This document shows positions 1,006 to 22,723 of a DNA stretch of 49,311 bases, one piece after another. The position numbers were made by a program, and so were the translations under genes. The DNA lies in NCBI GenBank assembly GCA_038064775.1, contig JBBTSG010000006.1, forward strand, positions 32,168-81,478. The letters run 5' to 3'. This DNA is from Patescibacteria group bacterium. Its GTDB lineage: Bacteria; Patescibacteriota; Minisyncoccia; UBA6257; GWB1-50-10. A model generated the notes under the pieces. It worked only from the letters and a program-made list of their open reading frames with translations, made no database searches and was not told the DNA's origin. How positions within the stretch are numbered: position 1 is the first letter of the stretch; each line of letters starts with the position of its first letter.

Positions 1006-1515
1006 CTATTTATATGAAACGTGATTAGACATTGATTTACCAAGGAGTAATGGTTTAATAATTTGCCACAGTTTTCTATGTTCCGGAATAATATCTTGAG
1101 GCATCTTCGCAAACCACACCCCGTGCTTTGCGGTTTTTAAAGTGGCGCATGAAAAAAATATTGAAACGCATTTAAAACGTCGACTATCGTATACGATTAC
1201 TCTACGAGCCGAGAGTGATTTGCTATTTTTAATTTTCAATCCCGCCTCCACTCGCGCAGTTCTTTGGCAAGTCGTTAAAAAAGTTTCTCTGGGACTCATA
1301 TAACTTCCGGGAAAGTGCCAGCCCTTAAAATATTTGTCATTCCGATATATTAAAAGCACTTTTCTATTTTGAATTAAAGCAAGCTCCGTTGCCACTGGGA
1401 CATTTTTTCTCATAAGCGATACAAAAACATTTTCTGGAATATTAGGAATTGACGGAAGTCTTTTCAATAATTGTGCCAATGTTTTAATTTCCGCTTTGGT
1501 TAAATGTTTTTGCAT
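1006..1515 (-). CDS. Nudix-fold hydrolase with degenerate Nudix box (GDP-mannose mannosyl hydrolase-like)
   Basis: VLLIYRNDKYFKGWHFPGSYMSPRETFLTTCQRTARVEAGL resembles the Gmm/WcaH region; paralog of 9145-9642. Confidence 0.7.
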   Translation of the reverse strand: MQKHLTKAEIKTLAQLLKRLPSIPNIPENVFVSLMRKNVPVATELALIQNRKVLLIYRNDKYFKGWHFPGSYMSPRETFLTTCQRTARVEAGLKIKNSKSLSARRVIVYDSRRFKCVSIFFSCATLKTAKHGVWFAKMPQDIIPEHRKLWQIIKPLLLGKSMSNHVSYK

Positions 1516-1532: not shown

Positions 1533-2483
1533 CTATATTTTTTCTCCTGTGCGTGTTTTTTTGAGATAAATCGCCCCCCTTTTTAGGAGCTTTATATTAA
1601 GCGATTTGTAATTAGCTTCATACCACCGATATAATTTCTCTATAGCTGTATCAAGTATTGTAAATTTAAAATTAGGCATTGATTTTAACAACTTGCTTAT
1701 GTCGGCGCTGTATTCTCTATCAAGGCCTTTGTTTTGAACCACAATAGGAACCTTATTTTTGCCAAATTTGTTTATTTTATTAGCAATACTTAAAAGATCC
1801 CTAGATTTACCGGTAGCCACATTAAAGACATCTCCCTTAATCTTGGAATTTATAAAAAAATCTATGGTGGCAACCAAATCATCAATATACATATAATCAA
1901 ACTGGACGTTTCGGGCAATTAAGATTGGCAAACCAAAAATGTTCCGCAAAATTGCGTTAGAAATAAACCTGAGATGATATTTTTCATATTTGCCAAAAAC
2001 ACCAAATAGGCGCAAACCAACAATATTTTTCGACGTCGCCAATATATACTTTGAACAAATATATTTTGAAAACCCGTACTCGTCTGACGGAATATGAGCG
2101 CCAAAATATTCTTCACGCATTCTCGGATGATAGTTGTGCACATCATATTCCGCTCCGCTTCCTAAAAATATCATCCGCTCAGCAATATCCAAGCATCGCT
2201 CCAAATTGAAAAACATGCGAATATTCCCTTCTGCCGCTCCTTTCAAATTAACCGTATCTCGCCTACCACCGACGTTTGCGCAGTGTATAATTACTTGTAT
2301 TTTATTTTTTTTAACGTACCGCCGCACCATATCTGCGTCCAATAAATCCAACTCGGTATGAGATGGGGCACTAACTAAATATTTTGCGGAAATAAATTCC
2401 GCAAGATTCCTACCTATGAACCCACGTCCACCAGTAATAAGAATGCGTTTTTTTCTTTTTACTACATTAGTATGACTGCTCAT
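1533..2483 (-). CDS. NAD-dependent epimerase/reductase (extended SDR, GDP-fucose synthase-like)
   Basis: ITGGRGFIG, ELDLLD, IIHCA, GSGAEY, YGFSK (YxxxK), FNVATG. Confidence 0.88.
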   Translation of the reverse strand: MSSHTNVVKRKKRILITGGRGFIGRNLAEFISAKYLVSAPSHTELDLLDADMVRRYVKKNKIQVIIHCANVGGRRDTVNLKGAAEGNIRMFFNLERCLDIAERMIFLGSGAEYDVHNYHPRMREEYFGAHIPSDEYGFSKYICSKYILATSKNIVGLRLFGVFGKYEKYHLRFISNAILRNIFGLPILIARNVQFDYMYIDDLVATIDFFINSKIKGDVFNVATGKSRDLLSIANKINKFGKNKVPIVVQNKGLDREYSADISKLLKSMPNFKFTILDTAIEKLYRWYEANYKSLNIKLLKRGAIYLKKTRTGEKI

Positions 2484-2486
2484 TAT

Positions 2487-3218
2487 CTATATAGCTGTTG
2501 GACCGACGTACTCTACATCTTCAGAATCAAGACGACGATAAGACTTCTCGTTTTTACACTCCTCCTCAACGTGAGCTATTATACCCGGTAATCGGCCCAA
2601 AATAAAAAATGCTTTGCCAAGTCGCCAATTAAATCCAAGCTCGGAAATGATTGCAGCCACTGCCCCATCAACGTTCAATGGTAGCACCTTACCTGTCTGG
2701 CGAAACAGTTCCGACTCAATTTCCCGCGCTCGATTTAAATACTTCATGGAAAGCTTCAATTCTTGCGATTTTTTAAAAAGCGCCGTGGTTCTATGATCCT
2801 CTGTTTTATAAACCTTATGGCCATATCCGGGTAACCGTTCTTTTCTCTGAATTGAGCGCTCTACTATTACCTGTGGCGAATCAGCCGACTGGAAATAAAA
2901 AGCAGCTTTTTCAATCGCGCCACCATGCATGTCTCCTATGGCGAGAATGCCCGCGGCGATGGCCGCATTCTGAGAATTGCCGGTAGAAACTACACTTCTC
3001 GCAACAAATGCTGACGGCACCTCTATTCCATGCTCTACCATGGAAATTAAAATCGCCTCCAGCATCTTAGCCTGGTTTTTAGAGGCCTGTTTTCCCTGTA
3101 AAATAAAGAATATGGTCTCCGCCAAATTTGCATCGTCCACCAATTTAGCCAAACGAACACCTCTTATATAAAACTCCCCGTCTTTATATGAGCTGATTGC
3201 AGTTTTCCATTTCATCAC
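2487..3218 (-). CDS. Citryl-CoA lyase (citrate synthase-like domain of ATP-citrate lyase)
   Basis: EHG..PSAFVAR, GDMHGGA, LPGYGHKVYK.ED.R, PLNVDGAVAA, GRLPGIIAH; about 240 aa stand-alone citrate-synthase fold. Confidence 0.88.
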   Translation of the reverse strand: MMKWKTAISSYKDGEFYIRGVRLAKLVDDANLAETIFFILQGKQASKNQAKMLEAILISMVEHGIEVPSAFVARSVVSTGNSQNAAIAAGILAIGDMHGGAIEKAAFYFQSADSPQVIVERSIQRKERLPGYGHKVYKTEDHRTTALFKKSQELKLSMKYLNRAREIESELFRQTGKVLPLNVDGAVAAIISELGFNWRLGKAFFILGRLPGIIAHVEEECKNEKSYRRLDSEDVEYVGPTAI

Positions 3219-4123
3219 CTTATTTTCCCACGAAGTTTTTCTTTAATCAACGGTGGCACGTCTTCTAAGGTGTTTACCACATAAACTCCGGCGCGTTTTA
3301 AAGAACTTACCTTTGAGGTGTAACTACCCCTTCCTTTCATGACTATCGCGCCAGCATGCCCTAAAACCGTGCCACTCGGAAGCTTTTCTGTGAATTTCCC
3401 GGCAATCAAAGCTATTATTGGTTTTTTGAATTTTGACTTTTTTATAAATCCGGCCAGTTCTTCCTCATAAATTCCGCCCACTTCGCCGAAAATTACTATG
3501 GCGCGCGTATCGTTATCCGTACCAAAGAGTTTAACTATGTCTATAAAATCAGAACCAGAAATTTGATCACCGCCAATACCAATAACAGTGCTTTGACCCA
3601 AACCTGCGTGATTTAATGTAACTGCGATTTCTGCAACCATACCACCACTTTTAGAAATAACTCCAATTCTGCCTGGTTGAAAAATATTTTTTGGATTACT
3701 ACCGCCGATACTCCCTACTTTCCCATAACCCGGAGAAATAATACCGACAGATGATGGACCGATAATAGTTGCTTTGTTTTTTCTAGCCCAAGCAAGAATT
3801 ATCGCGGTATCCATAACCGGCACATGTTCGGTTAAAATATTTATTAGCGGGATTTTATGATTAATAGCTTCAAGCGTGGCATCTTTTACCGCAAGCGCTG
3901 GCACAACAATAAGAGACGTGTTTATGGTTGGATGTAGACGTAAGACATCTTCTACCGTGTCATAAATAGGCACTCCATAAATTATTTGACCACCCTTACC
4001 GGGCGTAACGCCAGCTAGAACCTTAGTACCATAATTCCGCATCCCCTCCATGGCACGCAACCCCTCCTTGCCAGTAATTCCCTGAATAACTACTCTTGTT
4101 TTTTTATTAACGAGAATGCTCAT
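3215..4123 (-). CDS. ATP-citrate lyase/citryl-CoA synthetase CoA-binding subunit (SucD-like); start reassigned to MSILVNKK
   Basis: VIQGITGKEG, GVTPGKGG, IIGPSSVG, SKSGGM, IGIGGD, GEVGG, phospho-His motif LGHAGA. Confidence 0.88.
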   Translation of the reverse strand: MSILVNKKTRVVIQGITGKEGLRAMEGMRNYGTKVLAGVTPGKGGQIIYGVPIYDTVEDVLRLHPTINTSLIVVPALAVKDATLEAINHKIPLINILTEHVPVMDTAIILAWARKNKATIIGPSSVGIISPGYGKVGSIGGSNPKNIFQPGRIGVISKSGGMVAEIAVTLNHAGLGQSTVIGIGGDQISGSDFIDIVKLFGTDNDTRAIVIFGEVGGIYEEELAGFIKKSKFKKPIIALIAGKFTEKLPSGTVLGHAGAIVMKGRGSYTSKVSSLKRAGVYVVNTLEDVPPLIKEKLRGKIR

Positions 4124-5198
4124 AGTTTTTCTTTTTTTTTGACAAATCAACAACTAATTTAGCGGTTTCGGACATTGGCGTCCTTGAATCAAAGATATGA
4201 AAATCATAACCCTCTTTTTCTGCCACGGCCCTTAGCATCTCCTCGGCCTCCTTTTGCCGTGGTCCATCACGCCTTATAACAAAGGGATAGTTCGGCTTTG
4301 GTTTAACGCTTCTTAAGCCATCTAAAAACCCGCGCATTGTTTCATATATATCCGTAAAGTTTGCCGTACCACCTATAACCCAACAGCCCTTGAGTCCTTT
4401 TTGCGCAAGAACACGCTTCGTTAACTCCTCAACTATTTTAGCCGGTGGATTACCGGAATATTCCACATAGTTTGCTGGACGACCGCCATAAAAAAATAAA
4501 GCGTCAATATTTAAAAGAGAGGCACCCCCACCTGATGCAAGAATTGCGATATCTCCATTTAGATTTAGAAAGCTTCGTTCGTTCGGATTTATTTTCTCAT
4601 TATCCAAAATTACTTTTGCGTCACCCGCGATGAATTGACCATTTGAAGTTTTGAGTATCGGGTTAATTTCGGCAAGTAATGCATCCTCATCTAAAAATAA
4701 TTGCCATAAATTCTTAAGTAATAGGGAAAGTGGCGGGATATCCGACGAAACAAAACCGCTTTTCTGTAACGCCTCGCGAAAAAAAAATGGTTGGACGCCA
4801 GAAACCAGATCGATGGGAAATGTTTTTGCTTTTGAAATGCCAGATCCGCCTTTTGTGGAAAGCATTAGAATTGGACTTCGCAACATTAAATCATAACTGA
4901 ACGACGCATAATATTCATTACTTGCCGTGATTTTTTCTTCGACTAGAACGCTGATAATTTTTTTACCGGAAAGACCTCTTCTTAAAAGAACTTTTAATTG
5001 TTTTTTTACTTCCGATTTGGTTTTAGCGAATAATATTCCTCCGGCCTTCTTCCTCTCTCCAAAAAGAACTTGCGCTTTTACAGCATAAGGACCAGCGAAC
5101 CGAATTTTGGTCGCCGGACTACTCGCTATAACTCGACGAGGCGTAGGAATGCTGTATTTTTCAAACAATTCCTTCCCTTGAAACTCATATAATTTCAT
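4107..5198 (-). CDS. ATP-citrate lyase ATP-grasp/citrate-binding subunit (AclB/SucC-like)
   Basis: MKLYEFQGKELF, KAQV, EINP, DAK, SGGGAS, PANYVEYSGNP; GGTANFT and IRRDGP match the ACL citrate-binding motifs (GGIANFT/RRGGP) rather than SucC (GGIVRCD). Confidence 0.85.
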   Translation of the reverse strand: MKLYEFQGKELFEKYSIPTPRRVIASSPATKIRFAGPYAVKAQVLFGERKKAGGILFAKTKSEVKKQLKVLLRRGLSGKKIISVLVEEKITASNEYYASFSYDLMLRSPILMLSTKGGSGISKAKTFPIDLVSGVQPFFFREALQKSGFVSSDIPPLSLLLKNLWQLFLDEDALLAEINPILKTSNGQFIAGDAKVILDNEKINPNERSFLNLNGDIAILASGGGASLLNIDALFFYGGRPANYVEYSGNPPAKIVEELTKRVLAQKGLKGCWVIGGTANFTDIYETMRGFLDGLRSVKPKPNYPFVIRRDGPRQKEAEEMLRAVAEKEGYDFHIFDSRTPMSETAKLVVDLSKKKKNYEHSR

Positions 5199-7003
5199 GG
5201 ATTTGTCTTAGCTTCTTTCTCCAAGTCGGTCACCATTTGTTGTTTTAGTTCCGCGGGATCCAAAAACGGATACATGTCTTCGTATGGTTTGGGCACAAAT
5301 CTGCCATCGGGTAATTTATCCGACATAGTTCTTGGCGCCAATATTTGCCACTCTGGCGTCATTACGTCACAAATTACTGGCCCATCATAACTTAAAACTT
5401 CAGCTATTTTTTCATCAATCCCGTCCACTGAATCGATTCTAACGCCTTTAATTCCGTAAGCCTCCGCTATCTTAAGAGAATCCGGACACCAAAGACCAGT
5501 AGCCGGACTCTCGCCTATTAAATGTTTGTTCATAAAATTAGCTTGACTTAGTCGCATCAATAAATATCCATTGTTATTAAAAATAAAAATCTTAAGTGGT
5601 AAATTATTGTGTTTAACGGTGGCGAGCTCCTGCAAATTCATTTGCAAACTACCATCTCCAGTGATAACAATAGTATTTTTCCTATCATTAGCCACACAAG
5701 CCCCAATTCCGGCTGCCCAGTAACCCATAGTGGAAAATCCACCAGTCGTTAAAAATTTTTGACCTTTCTTTATTTTCCATGTTTGACACGCGACATGAAA
5801 ACAGGAACCGGTATCAACTAAAATCCAATCGTCTTTTGTCGCGGCCGCGGAAAGTTTGTCAGTAAAATAATATGAGTTTACCGGTTTTTCATTCTTGTAA
5901 GAAGGTTGAACAACTGGATACTTAATTCTCCATGCCTTACATACTCTTACCCACCCTCCCCAATCCGGCAATTTTTTATCGGTAATTTCTTCAAGTAACG
6001 TTTGAAGGAATTTTTTTGCCGTGCTCTTTATTTTAAGATCAATTTCAACCCCTGGCTTGTCCAGTTCTTTTTGGTCAACGTCCACAACAATTTTTTTTGC
6101 GTTTCTTCCGAAATCTTTGGGGTTATGTCCAACTAATGACGTGGCTAATCTGCAACCAACAACTACTATTAAATCTGAATTTTGAATCGCAAAATTTGCA
6201 GCTCTTTCCCCATACGTACCCGGCCTACCAACATACAATTTATGCTCGCTATCAATTAAATCTATTGCTAAACGCGCGGTTAAAATTGGAATTTTTAGCA
6301 AATTAATAAGATTCTCGAATTCTCCCTCCGCGCTACCCAATTTTATCCCTTGCCCAACCAAGAGTATTGGTCTTTTTGCACTTAGTAACATTTGGACTAG
6401 TTCTGCGATTTGACCTTTGTCAGACGCGAACTCTTCTTCCGTTTCTTGTTCATTAAAAATCTTTGCCGGTTTTTCCGGAACTTCAGCTCTTTGTATATCC
6501 AACGGCACATCAAGCCAAACCGGACCAGGCCTGCCGTTCATGGCAAGATAATAAGCCTTCTCCAAATAATATAATAAGTTAGCGGGGTTATCGACGGTAA
6601 CAAAAAATTTAACTACGTCTTTTACTAACGGTTTTATGTTTATACCCTGGACTCCAACTTGCCGAATTTTATTTTTTTCCTGATAATCGACAAACGCTAA
6701 ATTCGTCTGTCCAGAAATAATAATCATTGGCGAAGAATCTACCCAGCCGCCAACCACGCCGTTAATAACGTTCACCGCGCCGGGCCCCGCGGTTACCATA
6801 GCAATCGCTGGCTTTTTTTTTAGCCGTCCGTAGGCTTCAGCTGCCATTCCGGCTGCCTGTTCGTGATGAGAACAAATAACCTTAATTTTCTTACTCCTAT
6901 AAATCGCGTCATTTAGAAACATGGATTGCCCACCAGCAACCATAAACACCGCCTCAACTTCTTTTTCTTCAAAAAATTTTAAAATATAATCAGCAACAAT
7001 CAT
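5195..7003 (-). CDS. ThDP-dependent acetolactate-synthase-like enzyme, YerE/ErwE type (branched-sugar acyl transferase)
   Basis: HHEQAAGMAAE, VTAGPG, RPGPVWLDVPLDIQ, TGDGSLQMNLQEL..NNNGY; glycan-locus context. Confidence 0.85.
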   Translation of the reverse strand: MIVADYILKFFEEKEVEAVFMVAGGQSMFLNDAIYRSKKIKVICSHHEQAAGMAAEAYGRLKKKPAIAMVTAGPGAVNVINGVVGGWVDSSPMIIISGQTNLAFVDYQEKNKIRQVGVQGINIKPLVKDVVKFFVTVDNPANLLYYLEKAYYLAMNGRPGPVWLDVPLDIQRAEVPEKPAKIFNEQETEEEFASDKGQIAELVQMLLSAKRPILLVGQGIKLGSAEGEFENLINLLKIPILTARLAIDLIDSEHKLYVGRPGTYGERAANFAIQNSDLIVVVGCRLATSLVGHNPKDFGRNAKKIVVDVDQKELDKPGVEIDLKIKSTAKKFLQTLLEEITDKKLPDWGGWVRVCKAWRIKYPVVQPSYKNEKPVNSYYFTDKLSAAATKDDWILVDTGSCFHVACQTWKIKKGQKFLTTGGFSTMGYWAAGIGACVANDRKNTIVITGDGSLQMNLQELATVKHNNLPLKIFIFNNNGYLLMRLSQANFMNKHLIGESPATGLWCPDSLKIAEAYGIKGVRIDSVDGIDEKIAEVLSYDGPVICDVMTPEWQILAPRTMSDKLPDGRFVPKPYEDMYPFLDPAELKQQMVTDLEKEAKTNP

Positions 7004-7008
7004 CGTTT

Positions 7009-8013
7009 TTATTGGTGTTTTTTTGACAAATTCACGGCTACATCTACAATAACATCTTCTTGACCAGCAACAACTTTTCGTTTTCCTAACTCCATAAAAA
7101 TATCTCTAGCATCAACTCCAAACTCTTCGGCCGCTTTCTTTACATGCGGAGTAAAACCAGAAAACACCCCCGCTAAACCGCTTACAATACTGATCGGGTC
7201 AATCCCTTGGAGGGTTTTCATTATCGGCTTTATTATCTCCTCGCCAGCATCCAAAAGCTTATATAGCTCTACGCCCGTATCTATCCCAGCTTTCTGCATC
7301 AAAGCCATCAAAGCTTCGAGTTGGCAATTACCCGCACCCGCCCCAAATCCCCTCACCGTGCCATCAATAATACTTGCCCCGGACTCTAAAGCGATAAAAG
7401 AATTGGCCACGGCCATACTTAAATTATTATGGGCGTGAAAGCCAACTAGAATTTTTAAATTATCCGCCAAGTGTTTAACCGTTTCCCTAACCATAAGAGT
7501 GGTGGATGAACCAGCCGAATCCATAAGCAACACGCCCTTTACGCCATAGCTTTGCATTTTTTTTGCCTCTTCTAATAATCTTTCTTTCGAAGCCATATGA
7601 TACATCATTAGAACGCCAAAAGCCTCTTTTCTTTTACTAACCACATACTCAATATGCTGCTGGGTAATATCAGCTTCCGTACAATGCGTTCCTACACAAA
7701 CCAAATCTACTCCAGCATCAAGCGCTGGAGCCAAATCATCTTTAATAGTGCCAAATCCAGGAATCAAAAAGGTTCCTAGTTTGGTTTTTTTTAACGCTTC
7801 GCGCGCCGTAGAAATTATTTCCAAATCAGAATAAGCCGAAAGTCCAACCTGAAGAGTTGAAGCACCCAAGCCATTACCGTGTCCAACAATAACAGCGTAG
7901 AGACCAGACCCGTCAACTTTTTCACAATAGCTTTTGATTGTGAGGGGGTTAATTTGGTGCCTTACTGCGTGCGACCCATCCCTTAAAGTGGAATCAAAAA
8001 AAATAGGTTTCAT
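7009..8013 (-). CDS. dmpG: 4-hydroxy-2-oxovalerate aldolase
   Basis: DSTLRDGSHAVRHQ, VGHGNGLGAS, THCTEAD, GFHAHNNL, LGKRKVVAGQED. Confidence 0.93.
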   Translation of the reverse strand: MKPIFFDSTLRDGSHAVRHQINPLTIKSYCEKVDGSGLYAVIVGHGNGLGASTLQVGLSAYSDLEIISTAREALKKTKLGTFLIPGFGTIKDDLAPALDAGVDLVCVGTHCTEADITQQHIEYVVSKRKEAFGVLMMYHMASKERLLEEAKKMQSYGVKGVLLMDSAGSSTTLMVRETVKHLADNLKILVGFHAHNNLSMAVANSFIALESGASIIDGTVRGFGAGAGNCQLEALMALMQKAGIDTGVELYKLLDAGEEIIKPIMKTLQGIDPISIVSGLAGVFSGFTPHVKKAAEEFGVDARDIFMELGKRKVVAGQEDVIVDVAVNLSKKHQ

Positions 8014-8891
8014 TTGTTTTTATATTTTTTTCTGGCGTATTCTTCTGCAACTTGTACGGCTGCGGAGGTTATTATGTCTAAGTTTCCGGAATACTCTGGT
8101 AAAAAATCGCCTAGGCCGGTCACTTCGGTGGTAATGGTAAGACGACCATTTTCGTAAGTCGGCCCCAAAATAAGCTTGTATCCAGACGCATATTTTTTGA
8201 TTTGCGCAATAATTTCTTTTATTTTTTCCTCTATTTCCTTCAATTTTGGCTTTTCAATTTCAGCGTAAATCGTATTGCGCATCCGAACCGGCGGTTCTGC
8301 CGGATTCAAAATAATAACGGCTTTTGCTTTAGGCACCCCGGAGTAATGCTCAATCGCGTCTTTGGTTGTCTGAGTATATTCATCAATGTTTGCTCGCGTA
8401 CCAGGACCAGCTGATTTAGAAGAAATTGTCGCAACGATTTCAATATATTTTATCTCCGGGTGTATTTCCATTAGAACCTTAGCTATTGGCGCCGTGGCTT
8501 GACCGCCACAAGTCACCATATTAATGTTTTCCGCGCCGATACTTTCTTCCAAGTCAATAACCGGAACGCACATTCTGCCAAACCTTGATGGAGTTAAGTC
8601 AATTACAAATTTGCCAAGTTTTTTTAAAATTGGGGCGTTAACCATATGCGCTTTCGCAGAAGTCGTGTCAAAAACAACTTCACAAATATCTGGCTCGTCT
8701 AAAATTACCTGAATTGAATCCGCAGAAGTCCTGATGCCCATCTCTTTTGCTTTTTGAATTCCTTTGGACTTAGCGTCGCGCCCGGCAAAAATACTACATT
8801 CCAAAAGATCAGACCGTCGTATCTTAAATAGCAAGTCCATCCCAATATTGCCAGTACCGATAATGCCTATTTTAACTTTTTTATTTTCCAT
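8010..8891 (-). CDS. dmpF: Acetaldehyde dehydrogenase (acylating)
   Basis: IIGTGNIG, DLTP, NMVTCGGQAT (catalytic Cys), SKSAGPGTRANIDEY, GNLDIITSAA. Confidence 0.93.
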   Translation of the reverse strand: MENKKVKIGIIGTGNIGMDLLFKIRRSDLLECSIFAGRDAKSKGIQKAKEMGIRTSADSIQVILDEPDICEVVFDTTSAKAHMVNAPILKKLGKFVIDLTPSRFGRMCVPVIDLEESIGAENINMVTCGGQATAPIAKVLMEIHPEIKYIEIVATISSKSAGPGTRANIDEYTQTTKDAIEHYSGVPKAKAVIILNPAEPPVRMRNTIYAEIEKPKLKEIEEKIKEIIAQIKKYASGYKLILGPTYENGRLTITTEVTGLGDFLPEYSGNLDIITSAAVQVAEEYARKKYKNK

Positions 8892-9144: not shown

Positions 9145-9642
9145 ATGCTCGTAGCGCACGAAATAGAACTACTCGTTGCACTTCTTCAAAGGGTCGAATG
9201 GCCGCTGAATCCGAAAATTTTTCGCGCGTTCGTTAATATCGTAGTATCCGTTCCTATTGAACTAGCGGTACTTAATGAACGGGACGAAATCCTTATGTTC
9301 TATCGCAAGGACGAAGAGTACGATGGGAATCATATTCCCGGTACGGTGCTCCGCGATAATGAGACTGTTTCCGATGCAATTGCTCGTTTGCGCAAGAGCG
9401 AAGTAGTCGGCGGCAACATATCGGATCCTATCGACATAGGACACATAGAGATCGTGAAAGGAAATGGTTTTGGCGAGAACCCGACGCGCCATGAAATTTC
9501 TCTCGTTCATGTATCGCGACTCATGGGTCCTTATACAGGGAGTGGAAAATTTTATCTCCTAGACAGATTACCAGAAGATACACTGCCTCATCACCAAAAG
9601 CTAGTCAGTAAAGTTATCGAATATCTGCAAACGCTGAACTGA
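9145..9642 (+). CDS. Nudix-fold hydrolase with degenerate box; paralog of 1006-1515
   Basis: VPIELAV..ILMFYRKDEEYDGNHIPGTVLRDNET; SD AGAAAGGTGG upstream. Confidence 0.7.
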   Translation: MLVAHEIELLVALLQRVEWPLNPKIFRAFVNIVVSVPIELAVLNERDEILMFYRKDEEYDGNHIPGTVLRDNETVSDAIARLRKSEVVGGNISDPIDIGHIEIVKGNGFGENPTRHEISLVHVSRLMGPYTGSGKFYLLDRLPEDTLPHHQKLVSKVIEYLQTLN

Positions 9643-9728: not shown

Positions 9729-10973
9729 TTATTTAATTCCGCGCTTTTTTAAAAAAAATCCTGTTATTTCACAAACATAATCAATCATTTTATCTGTCAA
9801 GCCGTGATGTAAGCCAATAAGAAAGGAATTCCCCGTTATAAATTGCGAATTGGCTAGATTGCCAATCTTTCTGTATTTCACATTCGCATAAGCCGGTTGC
9901 TTTATTATATTCCCCGAGAAAAGTGGTCTTGTCTGAATCTTATGGCGCTCCAAATATCTAACCAGCTCATTTCTCGTAAATGGAGCGTCTTTTTTTATCG
10001 TTAGTGGAAAGGCTAACCAATTAACGTTCGTTCGGGGAAATTCTTTCGGTAAAATGAAGTATTCCTCAAATTGTCCAAAAAATTCGTAGAGCCGCTTAAA
10101 ATTATTCCTGCGCAAACTTGTAAAACCTTTCAATCTATTTAACTGCTCTAACCCAAATGCGGCCTGAATCTCGGTAGGCTTGAAATTATATCCTAGTTCC
10201 ACGAAAACGAAGGCGCTATCATACGGTTTACCATCAATCTTAAAAGTGGCTAACCGGGAACGAATGTCTTGATCGTGGCGCGAGATTCCCCTCCCCCAGT
10301 CACGAAACAACCTGGCTCTTTCCCTCAATTTTTTATCGTTGGTCATGAGCATACCGCCCGCCCCGCCAGTTGTTATTAGATGAGAGGCATAAAAACTCGT
10401 AGTCGTAACATCGCTCCATTTCCCCGATGGCTGACCGTTAAATTTCCCGCCAATAGTGTCACAGCTATCTTCAATGAAAACTAATCCATGTTTTTTGCAA
10501 AAACTCCTAATAGTTGGCAAATCCACAAAATTGCCGATCAGATGCGGCGCCATAACCGCCACGGTTTTATTGGAAATAGTTTTCTCTAATTCTTTTGGAT
10601 TTATTTGATAAGTTCCCGGCTCCACATCCACAAACACCGGAACCAAACCAGTTTGGATTATCGGAGCCACGGTCGTATTAAATGTGCACGCCGGGGTAAT
10701 TATCTCAGAACCCTTAGGGAATTTTAAGGCGCAAAGCGCTAAAAGGTTTGCGGAAGAACCAGAATTTACGAAAAGTCCGTACCTTTTTCCATATAATCCC
10801 GCTACCTTATTTTCAAATTCTGCAGTAATTTTTCCGGTTGTTAACCAACCACTTTTTAGTGCTTTATTAACAGCTACTATTTCTTTTTTACTGTATGCGT
10901 CAGTAGTATTCGGCGCATACCAAACCCAATCTTTTCCGGGAATAAATTTTTTACCGCTTATAAGAGAATTCAT
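9729..10973 (-). CDS. E1/RfbH(DdhC)-like PMP-dependent NDP-4-keto-6-deoxyhexose 3-dehydratase, lacking the Fe-S cysteine loop
   Basis: VNSGSSANLLA, SFYASHLIT (His at the Schiff-base Lys site), FRDWGR, GYNFKPTEIQAAFG, TRPLFSGNI.KQP. Confidence 0.85.
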   Translation of the reverse strand: MNSLISGKKFIPGKDWVWYAPNTTDAYSKKEIVAVNKALKSGWLTTGKITAEFENKVAGLYGKRYGLFVNSGSSANLLALCALKFPKGSEIITPACTFNTTVAPIIQTGLVPVFVDVEPGTYQINPKELEKTISNKTVAVMAPHLIGNFVDLPTIRSFCKKHGLVFIEDSCDTIGGKFNGQPSGKWSDVTTTSFYASHLITTGGAGGMLMTNDKKLRERARLFRDWGRGISRHDQDIRSRLATFKIDGKPYDSAFVFVELGYNFKPTEIQAAFGLEQLNRLKGFTSLRRNNFKRLYEFFGQFEEYFILPKEFPRTNVNWLAFPLTIKKDAPFTRNELVRYLERHKIQTRPLFSGNIIKQPAYANVKYRKIGNLANSQFITGNSFLIGLHHGLTDKMIDYVCEITGFFLKKRGIK

Positions 10974-10986
10974 TATTCAATAATGA

Positions 10987-12045
10987 TTAATGCATTTCCG
11001 TTCTGCCTTTTTCGGTCTCTATCGGAACGTGACGCATCCACAGTTTTTCTTTCCACCAATTTTCATTATTGATATACCAATCGATAACTGACCGGAGACC
11101 GCTTTCAAATGAGATTTTTGGCTCCCAACCAAGAACTTTTTTAATTTTATCTACTCCTGCAGTATGCCGAAAAACTTGACCTGGGCGATCCCCAATATTC
11201 ATAGATGAAAAACTGTATTGGACCTTACTGCTTTTATTCTTCATATATTCCATGATAAGATCAGCTATTTTTGAAACAGAGTAATCTTCCCCAGTACCAA
11301 CATTAAAAACCTCACCTTCAACTTTTTCCGCGGGAGCGTGCAAAATTAAATCTATAGCATTAGATAAGTCGTCTACGTAAGTAAAATCCCTTTTGCTATT
11401 ACCTGTGCCGTGTATAGTAAGCGGCTCTCTCAAAATACAGCTGGTGATAAAGCGGGGAATTAACTTCTCAAGATGTTGGTTCGGACCAAACATGTTAAAA
11501 GGGCGGACAATCACTGCCGGAATTTTATAAGTTGATACATAAGAATAAACTAGTCGATCAGCTCCAGCCTTGGCGGCGGCATAAGGACTTGCGGGATTAA
11601 GAGGGTGATCTTCATGCATTTTATCAGTAACCGCCGTACCATAAACTTCACTGGTCGAGATGTGAATAAATCTCTTGATTCTGTCTCTGTGTCGCAAAAC
11701 CGCGTTTGCCACCCGTTGAGTACCAATAACATCCGTCTCAAAAAATCTTTCGTCATCATAAATCGAACGAGCCACATGAGTTTCGGCGGCAAAATGAATA
11801 ACGACATTCGCTCGCGAGACAAGCTCTTCAACGAGTTTGGCATTTTTTACATCTCCATAGACGAAACGAAAATTTGAGGATTCGTGAATCCTTTTTGAAA
11901 TATTATGAATATCTCCCGCATACGTGAGCGCATCGAGAACAATGAAATTATATTTAGGGTATTTATCGAACAGATAAGCGAGTACATTGCTACCAATAAA
12001 TCCGGCAGCCCCAGTTATTAAAATTGTATTTCTGTCAGATATCAT
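10987..12045 (-). CDS. RmlB-like NDP-sugar 4,6-dehydratase (or decarboxylase) with a TSE active-site variant
   Basis: ITGAAGFIGS, DALTYAG, HFAAETHV, HISTSEVYG, PYAAAK, RDFTYVDD, DRPG. Confidence 0.85.
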   Translation of the reverse strand: MISDRNTILITGAAGFIGSNVLAYLFDKYPKYNFIVLDALTYAGDIHNISKRIHESSNFRFVYGDVKNAKLVEELVSRANVVIHFAAETHVARSIYDDERFFETDVIGTQRVANAVLRHRDRIKRFIHISTSEVYGTAVTDKMHEDHPLNPASPYAAAKAGADRLVYSYVSTYKIPAVIVRPFNMFGPNQHLEKLIPRFITSCILREPLTIHGTGNSKRDFTYVDDLSNAIDLILHAPAEKVEGEVFNVGTGEDYSVSKIADLIMEYMKNKSSKVQYSFSSMNIGDRPGQVFRHTAGVDKIKKVLGWEPKISFESGLRSVIDWYINNENWWKEKLWMRHVPIETEKGRTEMH

Positions 12046-12056: not shown

Positions 12057-13091
12057 TTACCTCATACTCTCAAATATATCAAGAATAGACTTAACTCTAT
12101 TGATAAAAAGGTGTCCACCATTCACGATTTTCTCTTGGCCGTTTTTGGCTATGTTTTTCCGTAATAGATCGTGCTTCAAATAAAAATCTATTTTGTTTTT
12201 CATCTCATCATACGAATCGAAAAATTCTGCCTCCTTGCCTTCTTCAAGGAATTCACCAATTTTTGAAGTCCGGCTATGAAGCATGAAAGCGCCGCAAGCA
12301 GGAATTTCAAATGTGCGACAAGCCAAGGTCTCATCGTTGTGTTCCCGCACAAAAGCGAGAGCGATTTTGCTTGAATTCAAAACCTTAGACATATTGCCAC
12401 AAGACGCTTCTTTAAATTGAATACAACCTTTTTTAAAAAGACATGAGCTCTTAGGACATTTCTCCCAACTATTACCATAAATTTTTATATCATAACCCTC
12501 TCCACACAACTTTTCCATATATTCAAATCTATTCTCTTTAGCATAAGTTCCTATAAAAACAATGTCGGCGCCAAGTCGGTCTTTTTCTTCCGGTGTCACT
12601 TCGGTGGGTTTATGACAGTCGGGATCGGCGGCGCAGGTTAAAAAGATAGCTTTTTTAGCTCCAAGTTTTAATAATTCTTTTGAATTCGCGAAATTAAAGA
12701 AAAAATGACAGTCATACAAAGGAATTGATTTATAAAAATAGGTGCTACAGGTTTTTGGAAATAAAACATAATCCGGATACCAAGAAAAAACTTTCGTAAT
12801 ACCGGACAATGCTTTAACGGTTTTTGGTTTAATTAATATGGGTTTAAAGCATAAAATGAAATCGGGTTTAAAGCTCTTGACGCGTTTTATGAGTTCTTTA
12901 TTAAGTTTTCCAGTAAAGAAATAATAAGGGGTCCTAAGGAGGCGATAACTTATTTTATTTATTAAGGATGTATTAAAATATTCTTCTTGACGCACAATAT
13001 CAACCTCAATATTAAGTTTTTTAAGAGCTTTGTAAATAAAATTTATTTCTCCTCCACCTCCAGTCCATTTGCCTGTTAATAATACTTTCAT
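12057..13091 (-). CDS. CgeB-like glycosyltransferase (GT-B fold)
   Basis: DIVFIGT, IKIYGNSW, LNSSKIAL, RTFEIPACGAFML, FLEEGKEAEFF. Confidence 0.85.
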   Translation of the reverse strand: MKVLLTGKWTGGGGEINFIYKALKKLNIEVDIVRQEEYFNTSLINKISYRLLRTPYYFFTGKLNKELIKRVKSFKPDFILCFKPILIKPKTVKALSGITKVFSWYPDYVLFPKTCSTYFYKSIPLYDCHFFFNFANSKELLKLGAKKAIFLTCAADPDCHKPTEVTPEEKDRLGADIVFIGTYAKENRFEYMEKLCGEGYDIKIYGNSWEKCPKSSCLFKKGCIQFKEASCGNMSKVLNSSKIALAFVREHNDETLACRTFEIPACGAFMLHSRTSKIGEFLEEGKEAEFFDSYDEMKNKIDFYLKHDLLRKNIAKNGQEKIVNGGHLFINRVKSILDIFESMR

Positions 13092-14346: not shown

Positions 14347-15426
14347 TTAGAACAAATCCGCCCAAATCACCATTGCCCGCCTAATTTTATTCCAATACTC
14401 ACCTGGATGAGGTAGTTTACTCGAGATCTCTTTATATAAATCCTTAACATTTGTCCCACTCAGATTCATTTCGTAAACTATCTGCCATAAATTCTCGTTT
14501 ATTTCTAATCCTGATCTCTCTTTTTCCAAATTAACGTATGGATCGCTCGCCCGATCATGCCAAACCACCGGATGACCAGAAGCGGCGCGGTAGTCCAAAA
14601 CATCAATAATCTTCTTCGCAAATACGCCAGCCCAAATATCATCAAATCTGTCATAACCCCACAGCTCGCCCGCTGCGTTTTTGCCCATTAACAGAAAATA
14701 CATTGCGGGCGTAAGTTCGCGCTTCCAAGCTACGTTCATTCCACACATTGGAAAAAAACTCCACCGCGGAATCATACGGTCGTGAAAATAGTGGTCGATA
14801 TGGGGAATTTCCTTCATATTTATTTGGGTCTCGGCATCCACGTCTGGCACGTTTGCCCAAAGACCATGAGAAAGCATTACTCGTTCGGAACCGAGAGGGT
14901 GCTCGAAATTTTTATGTGGGAACCCGCGAGGATTCAAATTGAGCGTCGAAGATACCCATGCCGGCTCCCGAAATTTCCTTTCAAAGAGATTGTGACGGTG
15001 AGTCTCCACGAGATCGTAAATATGATGCGCCTTGAGGTGAGCGCTATAATTCAGGGAAGGATAACAATCGTCGTCCAGAGAAATTATCATATCCGCACCA
15101 AGTTGATAGGCCTTCCAAAAACCGTAGGACTTAATAGAGCTCGAACGCCGCGGGATTATCCAATTGTCTAAACCGAGATCATTTTCAATATCTGCCCAAC
15201 TCAGATGAAGAACATTAAAATCAAGTTTTTTGTCGTCAATTCCAAAGGCCTTAACGGGATTATCCTCAACCACTACCAAAACCACCTCGTTTTTTTTAAA
15301 AATATCCTTCCATTCGTCCAAAAATCTCAAAATTGATTCTTGTCGTATAGTTGGAACAACAACGAATATTCGTGTCGTCGCTTCTTTTTGCTCTTTATGA
15401 GATTTTGTTTTTTGAACGTGAAGCAT
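14347..15426 (-). CDS. Reversibly glycosylated polypeptide (RGP)/UDP-arabinopyranose mutase family (GT75) homolog
   Basis: VVPTIR, SLDDDCYP (DxD), RGFP, SHGLWANVPDVDAETQI, FPMCGMNVAW, PAMYFLLMG, RFDDIWAG, WHDRASDPYVNLEKE occur in the same order as in plant RGP/UAM. Confidence 0.88.
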   Translation of the reverse strand: MLHVQKTKSHKEQKEATTRIFVVVPTIRQESILRFLDEWKDIFKKNEVVLVVVEDNPVKAFGIDDKKLDFNVLHLSWADIENDLGLDNWIIPRRSSSIKSYGFWKAYQLGADMIISLDDDCYPSLNYSAHLKAHHIYDLVETHRHNLFERKFREPAWVSSTLNLNPRGFPHKNFEHPLGSERVMLSHGLWANVPDVDAETQINMKEIPHIDHYFHDRMIPRWSFFPMCGMNVAWKRELTPAMYFLLMGKNAAGELWGYDRFDDIWAGVFAKKIIDVLDYRAASGHPVVWHDRASDPYVNLEKERSGLEINENLWQIVYEMNLSGTNVKDLYKEISSKLPHPGEYWNKIRRAMVIWADLF

Positions 15427-16798: not shown

Positions 16799-17809
16799 TT
16801 ATTTTATCTCAGAAATATTTACGATTCGTTTCTCCGCGTCTGAAACCCTAGCCGCTTCAAGAATACGAGCTTGAGCTAAAAGGTCGCCTTCGTAATCTTT
16901 TTTGCCATCCCCTCCTTTTAAAATTTCTCCGCAAAAATCATCGAACATTAATTTAAAATGGTCAGCAGGTTCAACTGTAATTTCTTGTATCTTATCATTT
17001 TTATCAAGGAAAATTTTTGTCGCTATATCTCTAGGAACTGCATACGCTCTTCCCATTCTTAGATATGCTTTACTACCTAAAACACCATACGTGGACTGAA
17101 AATAAGAACCATAAATAGTGGAAGCGAAGGCAGTTTTGTCACCCGAGTAATATAAAACCATATCAGCTTTTACATCAACGCGACTTTCAGGATCAAATTT
17201 CATTTTACATAAAATACTCTTAGGTTCTTCGCCGAAGATCATCCGACTCGCATAAATTGGGTAAGGCCCTTGGTAATTCAACGAACCGCCGCCAAGATTT
17301 TTATTCAATAAATTTACTCCATTACCCGATCCTGGAATTCCAAAACACGCATCAAACCTAATAAGATCGCCTAGTACGTCCTGTTTTATCAACTCTTTTA
17401 CTTTTTCGTGTTGCGGGTGATAGCGAAACATTAACCCCTCAATAATACGAACTCTGTTGTTTTTAGCGGCTTCAACCATTCGCTTTGCAGAGGCGTAAGA
17501 AATTGCGGCTGGTTTTTCGCAAATCACATGTTTCCCGGCCTTAATCGCTTGCATAGACCACTCTTCGTGAAAAGCGTTTGGCAACGAAATATAAATAGCG
17601 TTAATGTCTTTATTCTTTAAAACATCTTCATATGTTCCCCACGCGCTAACTCTAGATTCTTTAGAAACCTCCCTAGTTTTTTCCGGATTTCTTGAACCAA
17701 TCATAACTAACTCAACAAACTCCGAATCCCGCATTGCCGGAAATACATTTTTAATAGCTACGCTAGAACAACCAATCACGCCAAATTTAACTTTTGAGCT
17801 GGTTTTCAT
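16799..17809 (-). CDS. Gfo/Idh/MocA family oxidoreductase (NDP-sugar 3-keto reductase/dehydrogenase-like)
   Basis: FGVIGCS, YISLPNAFH, HVICEKP, MFRYHPQH, LGGGSL. Confidence 0.88.
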   Translation of the reverse strand: MKTSSKVKFGVIGCSSVAIKNVFPAMRDSEFVELVMIGSRNPEKTREVSKESRVSAWGTYEDVLKNKDINAIYISLPNAFHEEWSMQAIKAGKHVICEKPAAISYASAKRMVEAAKNNRVRIIEGLMFRYHPQHEKVKELIKQDVLGDLIRFDACFGIPGSGNGVNLLNKNLGGGSLNYQGPYPIYASRMIFGEEPKSILCKMKFDPESRVDVKADMVLYYSGDKTAFASTIYGSYFQSTYGVLGSKAYLRMGRAYAVPRDIATKIFLDKNDKIQEITVEPADHFKLMFDDFCGEILKGGDGKKDYEGDLLAQARILEAARVSDAEKRIVNISEIK

Positions 17810-17810
17810 T

Positions 17811-18932
17811 TTAAAATGACCGGCAAATTTCTATAAGCGACCGAGCAACATATTTTTTTTCCTCTTCGCTTAAAATCGGCCCGCTCGGAATATAAAAACC
17901 ATTTAAACCGATTTTATTGGCGACAAGACAATCATCGTGATTAGTAAAACCTCCTTTAATAAAAATTTCTTGCGTGTTATAAGGAATAAATCCTTCTCTG
18001 GTTTCTATACCCAATTTTGAAAGCTCTTCAAGAACTGTTTTTCTTTTGCCTTCCGCTTTACCCCGAAGCACCACGTAATACATCCAGTAAACATTTTTAG
18101 CGTAGGGTTTTTCAACGGGTAATTGGATTTCAGGAATGTTCTTGAAAGCGTCATTGTAAAAAGCTGCGATTTCTCTTTTTTTACCGATGATAAAATCTAT
18201 TTTCCCGATTTGAGCTAAACCTAAGGCTGCTTGAAGATTCGTCATCCGGTAGTTGTAGCCAATATCCTGATGCATAAATTTATTTGTCGCGCCAAAAGCT
18301 AATGATTTTAGCATTCTCGCCCGATCAGCTAATTCTTTATTATTCGTGGTAATCATCCCGCCTTCACCGGTTGTAATAATTTTATTGGCATAAAAACTGA
18401 AACAACCAATGTCTCCGAGCGATCCAACTTTCTTACCTTTATATTCCGCGCCATGGGCTTCCGCGCAATCTTCCACAACAAAAAGATTGTGTTTCTTGGC
18501 GATTGCCAAAATTGGATCCATATCCACCGGATGGCCATAAATATGAACCACCATAATAGCTTTTGTCCGCGGTGTAATTTTTTGCTCAATTAGACTAGGA
18601 TCAATATTCCAAGTATCTTTCTCAATGTCAATCGGAATCGGTTTTGCGCCGCAATAATGAACGGCAAAAAAAGTAGCCATGTTTGTAAATGTTTGAACGA
18701 GTACTTCATCGCCCGGCCCGATTTTCAGCGTTGCGAGAGCCAAATGGAGCGCGGTTGTTCCGCTTGTAGTTGTAATCGCATATTCGGTGCTACAATATTT
18801 TGCAAAACTTTTTTCGAAATCGTTAATATAGCTCCCGGAAAAACCGGAAATTTGACCCTTATCCAAAGCATCCATTACAATTTTTTTTTCTTCCTCTCCT
18901 AAAAATGGTTGGGAAACGGGAATTTTCCTCAT
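17811..18932 (-). CDS. DegT/DnrJ PLP aminotransferase (perosamine synthase-like); start reassigned to MRKIPVSQP
   Basis: TSGTTALHLAL, VHIYGHP, EDCAEAHG, SFYANKIITTGEGG (catalytic Lys), YNYRMTNLQAALG; the longer ORF start would run through the upstream terminator. Confidence 0.9.
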   Translation of the reverse strand: MRKIPVSQPFLGEEEKKIVMDALDKGQISGFSGSYINDFEKSFAKYCSTEYAITTTSGTTALHLALATLKIGPGDEVLVQTFTNMATFFAVHYCGAKPIPIDIEKDTWNIDPSLIEQKITPRTKAIMVVHIYGHPVDMDPILAIAKKHNLFVVEDCAEAHGAEYKGKKVGSLGDIGCFSFYANKIITTGEGGMITTNNKELADRARMLKSLAFGATNKFMHQDIGYNYRMTNLQAALGLAQIGKIDFIIGKKREIAAFYNDAFKNIPEIQLPVEKPYAKNVYWMYYVVLRGKAEGKRKTVLEELSKLGIETREGFIPYNTQEIFIKGGFTNHDDCLVANKIGLNGFYIPSGPILSEEEKKYVARSLIEICRSF

Positions 18933-18980
18933 AAAACCCATTATGGCAGAAAGGAGCGAAAAATAAAAGATGTTAAAAAA

Positions 18981-19016
18981 ATCCCCCAGTCTTATTTTAA
19001 GAACTGGGGGTATTTT
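18981..19016 (-). terminator. Intrinsic terminator of the 19015-19791 gene
   Basis: CCCCCAG-TTCTTAAAATAAGA-CTGGGGG followed by ATTTTTT on the minus strand. Confidence 0.7.
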
Positions 19017-21436: not shown

Positions 21437-21442
21437 TATAAA

Positions 21443-22000
21443 TCACTCCTTTCTTTTTTTGGCCCATAGGCCGGTTTTGTATTTTACGTCTCCCACTTTT
21501 TTTAACATCACGAGTTCGATATTACCTTTACCTACAAGCCCGGGAATATTTCCCACATGAATATATCCTGCTTTGAGATAAAGTCGCTGTCCTACAGGAT
21601 TGTCCTTACTTGTGGAAAGATATATTGTCGCAAGGTTCGGAATGCCACAAACTTCTTTTATGTATCGCACCGCAAGTTTATCGCCTTTGATAAGAAGTTT
21701 TATGCCAATGCCTTGCCCCTGCATGTTCTTACTTATGCCAATCATGTTCAAATAAACCGTGCCGTTGGTCGGGGGTTTATTCTCATAGTGAATGAAACCG
21801 ATAATCTTGTCTCCTTGTTTTGCAACAATTACGATTTCATTCTCATCATTAAGAGCTGTTCTAAAAAATCTTCGGCATTTTTCTCTGTCGAAACCCTTCC
21901 CATAATTAAAGTCCTGCGGAAATGTACCTTCGACAACGTCAATAATGCCACGCTCATCTCCCCGGATGGCTAACCGAATTTGAATTCTTCTCTTATTCAC
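21443..22000 (-). CDS. GNAT family N-acetyltransferase
   Basis: IGFIHY, LNMIGISKNMQGQGIGIKLL (motif A), N..GQRLYLKAGY. Confidence 0.85.
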   Translation of the reverse strand: MNKRRIQIRLAIRGDERGIIDVVEGTFPQDFNYGKGFDREKCRRFFRTALNDENEIVIVAKQGDKIIGFIHYENKPPTNGTVYLNMIGISKNMQGQGIGIKLLIKGDKLAVRYIKEVCGIPNLATIYLSTSKDNPVGQRLYLKAGYIHVGNIPGLVGKGNIELVMLKKVGDVKYKTGLWAKKRKE

Positions 22001-22695: not shown

Positions 22696-22723
22696 AACTA
22701 CGATGATATCGCCTTTGATTAAA

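Follow-up and report, generated by a model that had tools for sequence, protein, structure and literature searches.

Within a stretch of DNA of 49,311 nucleotides from a probable Patescibacteria genome (the whole stretch is termed the window), an open reading frame (ORF) on the reverse strand at 9729-10973 encodes a relative of the sugar 3-dehydratase E1 (DdhC/RfbH/AscC; CDP-6-deoxy-L-threo-D-glycero-4-hexulose 3-dehydrase) of Yersinia pseudotuberculosis. The protein, here called the 3-dehydratase, retains the catalytic histidine of this enzyme class, yet most of the cysteine ligands that hold the iron-sulfur (Fe-S) cluster of E1 are gone. Sugars are deoxygenated at C-3 by two routes: a radical route followed by E1 and SpnQ, which relies on an Fe-S cluster and a reductase, and the route of ColD, which is paid for by an amino donor. 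According to a review from 2022, E1, ColD and SpnQ are the only well-characterised 3-dehydratases, while homologues from the urdamycin and ossamycin systems have been identified, but not studied in vitro (PMC8987622). We describe the gene, its relatives and its neighbourhood, and weigh which of these chemistries, if any, the 3-dehydratase is likely to employ.

The 3-dehydratase and the Cys-less clade

The gene and its diagnostic positions are listed below (coordinates of the window, strand in brackets).

9729..10973 (-): E1/RfbH-like, pyridoxamine 5'-phosphate (PMP)-dependent nucleoside diphosphate (NDP)-4-keto-6-deoxyhexose 3-dehydratase of the Cys-less clade, 414 amino acids; assigned by Pfam, NCBIfam and PDB searches, AlphaFold2 and Foldseek
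10461..10463 (-): Cys171, which corresponds to C193 among the E1 ligands (Cys in ColD as well, despite its lack of a cluster, and Ala in several clade members)
10380..10385 (-): Ser197-His198, the catalytic His that replaces the Schiff-base Lys, and the Ser before it; compare S187-H188 in ColD and Ala-His in Fe-S E1s
10248..10292 (-): loop RGISRHDQDIRSRLA in place of the E1 iron-sulfur loop RDCYCAPGCDNTCKKRF, 3 residues shorter and devoid of Cys, as judged from alignments

The ORF is intact, starts with ATG, codes for 414 amino acids and is separated from the gene upstream by a gap of 13 bp. Its product belongs to the DegT/DnrJ/EryC1 family (Pfam DegT_DnrJ_EryC1, 1.3e-90) and scores 402.6 bits against the NCBIfam RfbH equivalog NF011936, under the cut-off of 423. 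The best solved relative by sequence is Yersinia E1 (3bcx, 2.4e-86), followed by ColD (5.5e-53), the guanosine diphosphate (GDP)-4-keto-6-deoxy-D-mannose 3-dehydratase of entries 2GMS and 3B8X. A “putative NDP-4-keto-6-deoxyglucose-3-dehydratase” (9wvy, 1e-41), on the name of which a literature search found nothing, is further from the 3-dehydratase than ColD. The AlphaFold2 model, computed from a 54-sequence alignment, reached a mean predicted local distance difference test (pLDDT) score of 95.5 and a predicted template modelling (pTM) score of 0.93, and the single softer stretch is the replaced loop (block mean pLDDT 76). With this model, Foldseek ranked E1 (3bcx) at the top, with a template modelling (TM) score of 0.89 and 38% identity, while ColD followed with a TM score of 0.83 and approximately 30% identity. 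By sequence and predicted fold, the scaffold is that of E1.

An earlier note, made by reading this DNA without database searches, had proposed an E1 scaffold, and in both the alignment and the structure prediction E1 does rank first. Its wording that the protein follows Yersinia E1 closely amounts to an identity of 38-39%. The motifs that it quoted are all present, including SFYANKIIT in the gene at 17811. In the 3-dehydratase itself, FRDWGR starts at residue 223, YDSAF at 251 and SFYASHLIT at 193; further motifs are GYNFKPTEIQAAFG at residue 261, TRPLFSGNIIKQP at 348 and RGISRHDQDIRSRLA at 228. The likeness to E1 (3BCX/3BB8) thus extends over FRDWGR, YD..F, GYN.K.T..QAA.G and TR.LF.GN, and it includes the His at the Schiff-base position.

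This His, to which the note had already pointed, is placed by the HMMER alignment, where SFYASHLIT of the 3-dehydratase stands opposite SFYPAHHIT of E1, and His198 equals E1 His220. The register is borne out by entry 3bb8, the H220K mutant, where that column holds Lys. In an alignment of the clade, the catalytic His is invariant, and the preceding Ser is conserved to at least 90%.

The [2Fe-2S] cluster of E1 is bound by residues that we take to be C193, C251, C253 and C261, forming a C-X57-C-X-C-X7-C motif; the numbering was checked in the HMMER alignment against the H220K entry, D194, Y217 and F345. Three of the four equivalents (C251, C253 and C261) are absent from the 3-dehydratase, and in the same alignment DCYCAPGCDNTC of E1 is matched by GISRHDQD and a 3-residue gap, without any Cys. 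The earlier note, which saw no Cys in the stretch that replaces the E1 loop, was therefore right about the loop, with one correction: the equivalent of C193 is kept, as Cys171 within IEDSCD. This residue is not in a column conserved to at least 90%, and it is no sign of a cluster, because cluster-free ColD has Cys at the same place and several clade members have Ala. Among the 54 aligned clade sequences, 31 columns are invariant, His198 included, and no Cys column reaches 90% conservation. Judged from these sequences, a Cys-ligated cluster is effectively excluded in the clade.

The 3-dehydratase is not singular, but belongs to a Cys-less clade that is large, conserved and uncharacterised. All of its 120 nearest homologues, which are 59-79% identical, have the catalytic His. 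The C-x-C...C motif is found in none of the 83 loops that follow the FRDWGR pattern (two contain one stray Cys), the remaining 37 homologues not matching this pattern and lying outside the loop count; most of the 83 loops are GISRHDEKIRSRLATFKIDGKPYDS. Since the Cys-less loop is conserved in the nearest homologues, it is neither a chance event nor a sequencing artefact.

On a wider scale, 50%-identity representatives, searched exhaustively, yielded 2309 clusters at E<=1e-30, the best 150 of which were aligned with E1 and ColD, and 148 near-full-length rows were sorted. The C-x-C...C motif occurs in 73 of these rows (72 representatives and the E1 reference). Approximately 39 rows, the query among them, stand together in a neighbour-joining tree as one contiguous Cys-less block; their signature is S-C/A-D-Y-H-(I/L/V/M)-L, and their loop, WGR...SED...RF, is acidic. 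Another 11 rows, the ColD reference and ten representatives, make up a ColD-like block that is marked by HGW.R and by Glu at position 194, and other Cys-less lineages are dispersed among the tree groups. The 3-dehydratase, with neither HGW.R nor Glu194, lies on the E1 side of the tree and outside the ColD-like block. Its nearest loci stem from metagenome-assembled genomes of Patescibacteria, namely Minisyncoccia, Jorgensenbacteria, Wolfebacteria, Brennerbacteria and Saccharibacteria. The database labels of clade members disagree, as some are termed “E1” in IMG and generic aminotransferases in NCBI.

The residue before the catalytic His correlates with the presence of the cluster. In Fe-S E1s this residue is Ala, and only 5 of 73 have Ser, whereas Ser is found in 34 of the 39 members of the Cys-less clade, in all 11 ColD-like sequences and in 16 of 30 sequences from other Cys-less lineages. 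The corresponding Ser187 of ColD is one of two residues altered in the H188K/S187N variant (3gr9), and this pair of changes reportedly converts ColD to an aminotransferase. With ColD, the 3-dehydratase accordingly shares the lack of an Fe-S cluster, the Ser-His dyad and the Cys at the position of E1 C193. The 3-dehydratase also differs from E1 in having Phe instead of Tyr at position 280; as a second marker of the Fe-S state, however, Tyr280/Phe280 fails in the other Cys-less lineages and carries little weight.

Some clade members are fused to other domains, either to short-chain dehydrogenase/reductase (SDR) domains resembling 4,6-dehydratases or to RmlC+RmlD-like domains. Both kinds of fusion place the clade in deoxysugar pathways and point to chemistry of the deoxythymidine diphosphate (dTDP) type. 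Fusions of E1-like domains with E3, the reductase partner of E1, were sought as well, but the N-terminal extensions that were checked all start with SDR/Rossmann-type sequence and show no ferredoxin or FNR motif; in P0122, P0130 and P0146, Pfam identifies them as SDR domains. A separate observation concerns several unrelated Fe-S E1 homologues (P0167, P0181, P0208, P0209, P0228, P0238, P0239 and P0258), in which an intein sits directly before the first Fe-S ligand, E1 Cys251 (WGRD/C...HN/CWC). The Cys-less member P0124 has an intein at another site.

Gene context: reductase, substrate supply and branching module

E1 receives its electrons from E3 (DdhD/RfbI/AscD), and the earlier note had seen no such reductase in the window. 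Pfam was run on all window ORFs of at least 150 amino acids and on two small ORFs (a cupin and a Dabb protein); a 159-residue ORF at 31269-31748(+), located inside a gene of 1152 codons on the opposite strand, was left out. In the 49-kb window, Pfam revealed neither an E3-like reductase nor any other protein of the Fer2, FNR, ferredoxin or flavodoxin type. A hidden Markov model (HMM) of E3, built from 22 E3-like ORFs that had been recognised by ferredoxin and FNR motifs in Fe-S E1 loci, likewise gave no match in any stop-to-stop frame of at least 60 amino acids of the window, a set that takes in the ORFs outside the Pfam scan, and the note's observation stands.

The control set comprised 80 metagenome loci that contain a true Fe-S E1 gene, 28 of them with full flanks (the locus of P0176 was too short for use). 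The E3 HMM detected a partner in 12 of the 28 full-flank loci, at 366-488 bits and 2-3 kb upstream of E1, compared to none of 16 distinct Cys-less loci; Fisher's test yields p ~0.002, which is only a rough indication, as the loci are non-independent. The single match in a Cys-less locus, L014 (105 bits, 9 kb off and on the opposite strand) was discarded as an E3, since it is a generic FNR-family protein and true E3s score 366-488 bits. In Yersinia, the sugar that accepts an acyl branch is linked to cytidine diphosphate (CDP) and made by the Fe-S enzyme E1 and E3, encoded by ddh genes. A DdhA-type cytidylyltransferase motif occurs in 58 of the 80 Fe-S E1 loci versus 0 of the 16 Cys-less loci, and no CDP-glucose genes are found in the window or in the related Cys-less loci.

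The genes upstream of the 3-dehydratase suggest another source of substrate.

10987..12045 (-): RmlB-type NDP-glucose 4,6-dehydratase, the probable substrate supplier; TIGR01181, PDB matches, conserved adjacency
12057..13091 (-): Glyco_trans_1_2 glycosyltransferase, a conserved upstream neighbour of the dehydratase pair; Pfam, related loci

The dehydratase scores 319 bits against TIGR01181, versus 81-82 bits against the models for CDP-glucose and GDP-mannose. It has 11 PDB matches at E<=1e-40, the best ten of which are dTDP-glucose 4,6-dehydratases; the eleventh is 6bwl, “Pal”. The pair of RmlB-type dehydratase and 3-dehydratase is kept in all close relatives; of nine distinct close loci, eight reach 69-76% of self-score, and L007, a short contig, reaches 46%. 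The window and the loci L001 and L018 also have a longer gene order in common, comprising a large PG_binding protein, Wzy, a TPR protein, a methyltransferase, a GT4 glycosyltransferase, a further glycosyltransferase, the RmlB-like and the RfbH-like gene. In contrast to E1, the 3-dehydratase has a partner dehydratase of the RmlB and not of the DdhB type, and no DdhA is encoded nearby.

The earlier note had suggested GDP-4-keto-6-deoxymannose, the product of Gmd, as substrate. A Gmd is indeed encoded at 23699-24784 (TIGR01472, 512.8 bits), but 12.7 kb from the 3-dehydratase gene and in a unit of its own, which also holds, in divergent orientation, genes for a TylC3-type sugar C-methyltransferase and an FdtA-like cupin. 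A true Gmd accompanies relatives of the 3-dehydratase in one related locus only (L015), and the adjoining dehydratase is of the RmlB type. The gene context therefore does not support this substrate, and 4-keto-6-deoxyglucose linked to dTDP or to uridine diphosphate (UDP) is the better guess.

Downstream of the 3-dehydratase, the operon continues with genes for the synthesis and transfer of an acyl branch.

8010..8891 (-): acetylating acetaldehyde dehydrogenase (ErwJ/BphJ/DmpF-like); TIGR03215 385.5, cut-off 282
7009..8013 (-): 4-hydroxy-2-oxovalerate aldolase (ErwI/BphI/DmpG-like), the presumed source of the branch donor; TIGR03217 377, cut-off 286
5195..7003 (-): acetolactate synthase (ALS)-like enzyme dependent on thiamine diphosphate (ThDP; YerE/ErwE-like), which would put the acyl branch on C4 of a 4-keto-3,6-dideoxy sugar
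2487..5198 (-): ATP-citrate-lyase-like trio of citryl-CoA lyase, SucD-like and SucC-like (Citrate_bind) subunits
1533..2483 (-): SDR, a candidate side-chain or C4 ketoreductase (YerF/ErwF-like slot)

The module at 1533-8891(-) matches the erwiniose gene set of Steitz et al., which consists of ErwI, ErwJ, ErwE and ErwF (PMC9306805). The branch of erwiniose comes from 4-hydroxy-2-oxopentanoate, which the ThDP enzyme couples to a 4-keto-3,6-dideoxyhexose; for Pectobacterium a CDP-linked acceptor has been proposed, while the cluster genes that make it are only predicted (PMC9306805). As in the erwiniose and yersiniose clusters, the ThDP enzyme, the SDR, the BphI-like aldolase and the BphJ-like dehydrogenase lie beside genes for a deoxy-keto sugar. 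The window differs from these clusters by the RmlB-type dehydratase, the Cys-less enzyme and the inserted ATP-citrate-lyase-like trio.

The same branching module is associated with both types of 3-dehydratases. Homologues of the ThDP enzyme adjoin RfbH-like genes in loci L003, L009, L012, L016 and L022 as well as Fe-S E1 genes in 27 of the 80 control loci, and in L055, L067, L073 and L097 the complete module of ThDP enzyme, aldolase and acetaldehyde dehydrogenase stands directly beside a classical Fe-S E1. Since the module adjoins Fe-S E1 elsewhere, the Cys-less enzyme fills the pathway slot of E1, which feeds ThDP branching enzymes (YerE/ErwE). The shared module is the strongest evidence for a 4-keto-3,6-dideoxy product of the 3-dehydratase. 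In the related loci, an SDR comes after the gene, accompanied in some by an ALS-like ThDP enzyme and in others by a split transketolase; an SDR after the RfbH-like gene is found in L018, L022 and the contig of P0026. The comparison with the erwiniose genes suggests that this genome makes a C4-acyl-branched, erwiniose-type 3,6-dideoxyhexose and, more generally, that candidate-phyla bacteria carry erwiniose-like surface sugars.

Proposed reaction and alternative explanations

The 3-dehydratase is an E1-lineage enzyme without a cluster: it has neither the Fe-S site, the E3 partner and the CDP-sugar genes that go with E1, nor a place in the ColD clade or a conserved Gmd neighbour. We lean towards the view that it is an Fe-S-free and E3-free, PMP-dependent NDP-4-keto-6-deoxy-D-hexose 3-dehydratase, which is built on the E1 fold and turns over in a ColD-like manner. 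A reaction of this kind had been proposed in the earlier note; the missing Fe-S loop and the lack of a detectable E3 agree with it, and the amino-donor step is plausible.

According to this proposal, the RmlB-type dehydratase would supply dTDP- (or UDP-) 4-keto-6-deoxyglucose, and PMP would form a ketimine with C4 of the sugar. His198 would then take the C4' proton and the 3-OH would leave, giving a delta-3,4-glucoseen adduct. As far as the delta-3,4-glucoseen-PMP adduct, E1, ColD and SpnQ all take the same steps, which need the catalytic His (PMC8987622). From there, the adduct would most likely be hydrolysed as in ColD to pyridoxal 5'-phosphate (PLP) and an enamine sugar, since no cluster is present to bring electrons and the resolution used by ColD is the sole known alternative. 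The enamine sugar would tautomerise and lose ammonia to yield NDP-4-keto-3,6-dideoxyglucose, and an amino acid donor, e.g., L-glutamate, would restore PMP. The product could serve as acceptor for the adjoining ThDP enzyme, which would add an acyl branch from the 4-hydroxy-2-oxopentanoate provided by the aldolase/acetaldehyde dehydrogenase pair and thus give rise to an erwiniose-like sugar of a surface glycan.

SpnQ, the TDP-4-keto-2,6-dideoxy-D-glucose 3-dehydrase of spinosyn biosynthesis, acts on a dTDP-linked substrate, as is presumed for the 3-dehydratase, and likewise has no dedicated E3 gene. Unlike the 3-dehydratase, it has the [2Fe-2S] motif, and its deoxygenation depends on a ferredoxin or flavodoxin reductase system. 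SpnQ also shows that glutamate-dependent half-reactions are possible on an E1-type scaffold (PMC8987622).

Several points weigh against the proposal. At position 221 the 3-dehydratase has Leu and the clade Leu, Ile or Val, whereas both E1 and ColD have His, and at position 345 it has Leu where both E1 and ColD have Phe; as far as the residues tell, the active site is not simply ColD-like. The correlation of Ser-His with the Cys-less state plausibly fits ColD-like chemistry, but a correlation does not establish a mechanism. The carrier nucleotide is read solely from the type of the dehydratase, because Pfam detects no sugar nucleotidyltransferase in the 49-kb window. Literature searches retrieved no characterised Cys-less E1 homologue and no biochemical data on the clade. 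Furthermore, the search for a reductase in this genome covers the 49-kb window, an E3 within 6 kb is also missing from 16 of the 28 Fe-S E1 loci with full flanks, and SpnQ runs on general cellular reductases without a dedicated E3 (PMC8987622). The missing neighbour E3 thus supports the proposal but does not decide the matter, and many E1s may, like SpnQ, rely on distant or general reductases.

The deviating positions 221 and 345, which resemble neither reference enzyme, also figure in a doubtful but conceivable alternative, in which no net 3-deoxygenation takes place. The 3-dehydratase would then be a His-based aminotransferase that produces a 4-amino-4,6-dideoxy sugar, or its product would be a keto sugar that is isomerised or has a 3,4 double bond. 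The DegT family consists mostly of aminotransferases, and SpnQ displays 4-aminotransferase activity when supplied with PLP and glutamate, but no reductase (PMC8987622). On the other hand, His at the Schiff-base position is a hallmark of dehydratases and invariant in the clade, and the window already encodes a separate Lys-type DegT aminotransferase at 17811-19043. The conserved ThDP partners require a keto acceptor, and the fusions to RmlC/RmlD-like domains call for a 4-keto product; the branching module goes with true E1 elsewhere, and known acyl-branched sugars of this type are all 3,6-dideoxy (PMC9306805).

It is likewise only a tentative and rather unlikely idea that the Cys-less clade forms a fourth, mechanistically distinct class of 3-dehydratases acting on dTDP- or UDP-sugars, which resolves the adduct unlike E1/SpnQ and unlike ColD. 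The altered site (Leu/Ile at 221, Leu at 345 and the new acidic or basic loop) would be responsible, possibly with the help of the degenerate-Nudix proteins listed below.

The reductase systems of SpnQ and the 16 Fe-S E1 loci devoid of a nearby E3 would also accommodate an enzyme that still takes two external electrons without a cluster of its own, for instance directly from a ferredoxin or flavodoxin of general function, or by way of a metal site made of non-Cys ligands in the R-H-D loop together with Cys171. His233 and Asp234 of the replacement loop are conserved in close homologues, and the fold is closer to E1 than to ColD. We regard such a route as unlikely, however, because in E1 and SpnQ it is their own [2Fe-2S] cluster that conducts electrons to PMP, and here three of four ligands are gone and no conserved Cys is left. 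Moreover, the R-H-D motif is limited to a narrow subclade, the loops of the wider clade being acidic and varied, e.g., IGNNSEDLVERF, and no non-Cys ligand set is common to the clade, Cys171 itself being Ala in several members.

The SDR encoded after the gene, a feature of the window as well as of L018, L022 and the contig of P0026, or the SDR domains fused to several clade members might instead reduce the glucoseen-PMP adduct with hydride from NAD(P)H, which would amount to a two-protein, Fe-S-free deoxygenation. This is improbable, as a PMP-glucoseen adduct has, to our knowledge, never been seen to be reduced by hydride, and the SDRs are accounted for otherwise. They are either 4,6-dehydratases with high GDP_Man_Dehyd and RmlB scores or ketoreductases of the YerF/ErwF/RmlD type, which are needed in every such pathway. 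That the protein is a decayed, non-catalytic relic of E1, as the loss of a cofactor site essential in E1 might imply, is scarcely credible in view of an intact ORF, 31 invariant columns that include the catalytic His and the PMP-binding core, homologues of 59-79% identity in many lineages, a conserved operon position and a fold predicted with high confidence.

Given the precedent of ColD, an Fe-S-free deoxygenation would not be surprising in principle. Orthologues of ColD, with 62-67% identity, are also the 3,6-dideoxyheptose enzymes of Campylobacter jejuni HS:5/HS:11 (PMC10440746). The 3-dehydratase itself differs from ColD in being approximately 30% identical, with a TM score of 0.83, and in its position outside the ColD block and without Gmd as a conserved neighbour. 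The Cys-less branch accounts for dozens of the best 150 clusters at 50% identity and is common in Patescibacteria, and a single characterised member would tell whether the E1 scaffold gave rise to ColD-type chemistry or retained it. Ser versus Ala before the catalytic His constitutes a testable candidate switch between hydrolysis and reduction. Characterisation would further correct the annotation of many database relatives, and it would provide an oxygen-tolerant, partner-free route to NDP-4-keto-3,6-dideoxyglucose, from which 3,6-dideoxy and acyl-branched sugars could be made chemoenzymatically. If the clade did represent a fourth class, small-genome bacteria such as Patescibacteria would have a way to such sugars that depends neither on Fe-S nor on flavin electron transfer.

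Further genes of the window

Other genes lie within or close to the sugar operon or next to Gmd.

9145..9642 (+): small protein of the Nudix fold, its Nudix box degenerate; paralogue of 1006..1515
1006..1515 (-): second degenerate-Nudix paralogue, at the operon end
24862-26100 (+): TylC3-type sugar C-methyltransferase, divergent from Gmd
26105-26482 (+): small FdtA-like cupin, beside the C-methyltransferase

The Nudix boxes of both paralogues lack RE..EE. Members of this degenerate-Nudix family occur in approximately 6 of the 16 distinct Cys-less loci versus 1 of the 80 Fe-S E1 loci and are missing from several close relatives of the 3-dehydratase locus. Relatives in other loci are found at the following positions.

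L001: 11340-12647
L005: 11339-11899
L008: 11225-11812
L009: several

The ATP-citrate-lyase-like trio within the branching module is present in none of the related loci. Its citryl-CoA lyase is recognised by NF004869 (254.7, cut-off 212), and the trio might supply acetyl-CoA, as well as oxaloacetate for conversion to pyruvate, to the synthesis of the branch donor. The Gmd, the C-methyltransferase and the cupin probably represent a second, separate route that leads to a methyl-branched 6-deoxy GDP-sugar.

The Lys-type DegT aminotransferase at 17811-19043(-), which carries SFYANKIIT, is LegC/PseC-like. Together with a GFO/IDH/MocA oxidoreductase it occupies 16799-19043(-), a pair that is typical for the formation of a 3-amino or 2,3-diamino sugar and independent of the 3-dehydratase. 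Between two GT4 glycosyltransferases, at 14347-15426(-), the bacterial glycan operon encodes a protein of the RGP/GT75 family (Pfam 8e-38), the family of reversibly glycosylated polypeptides and UDP-arabinopyranose mutases. The region between the sugar operon and Gmd, at 20747-23299(-), harbours a GNAT acetyltransferase, two proteins with weak HD domains and a protein of 182 amino acids, the latter with weak matches only, to nucleotide-kinase-like P-loop families.

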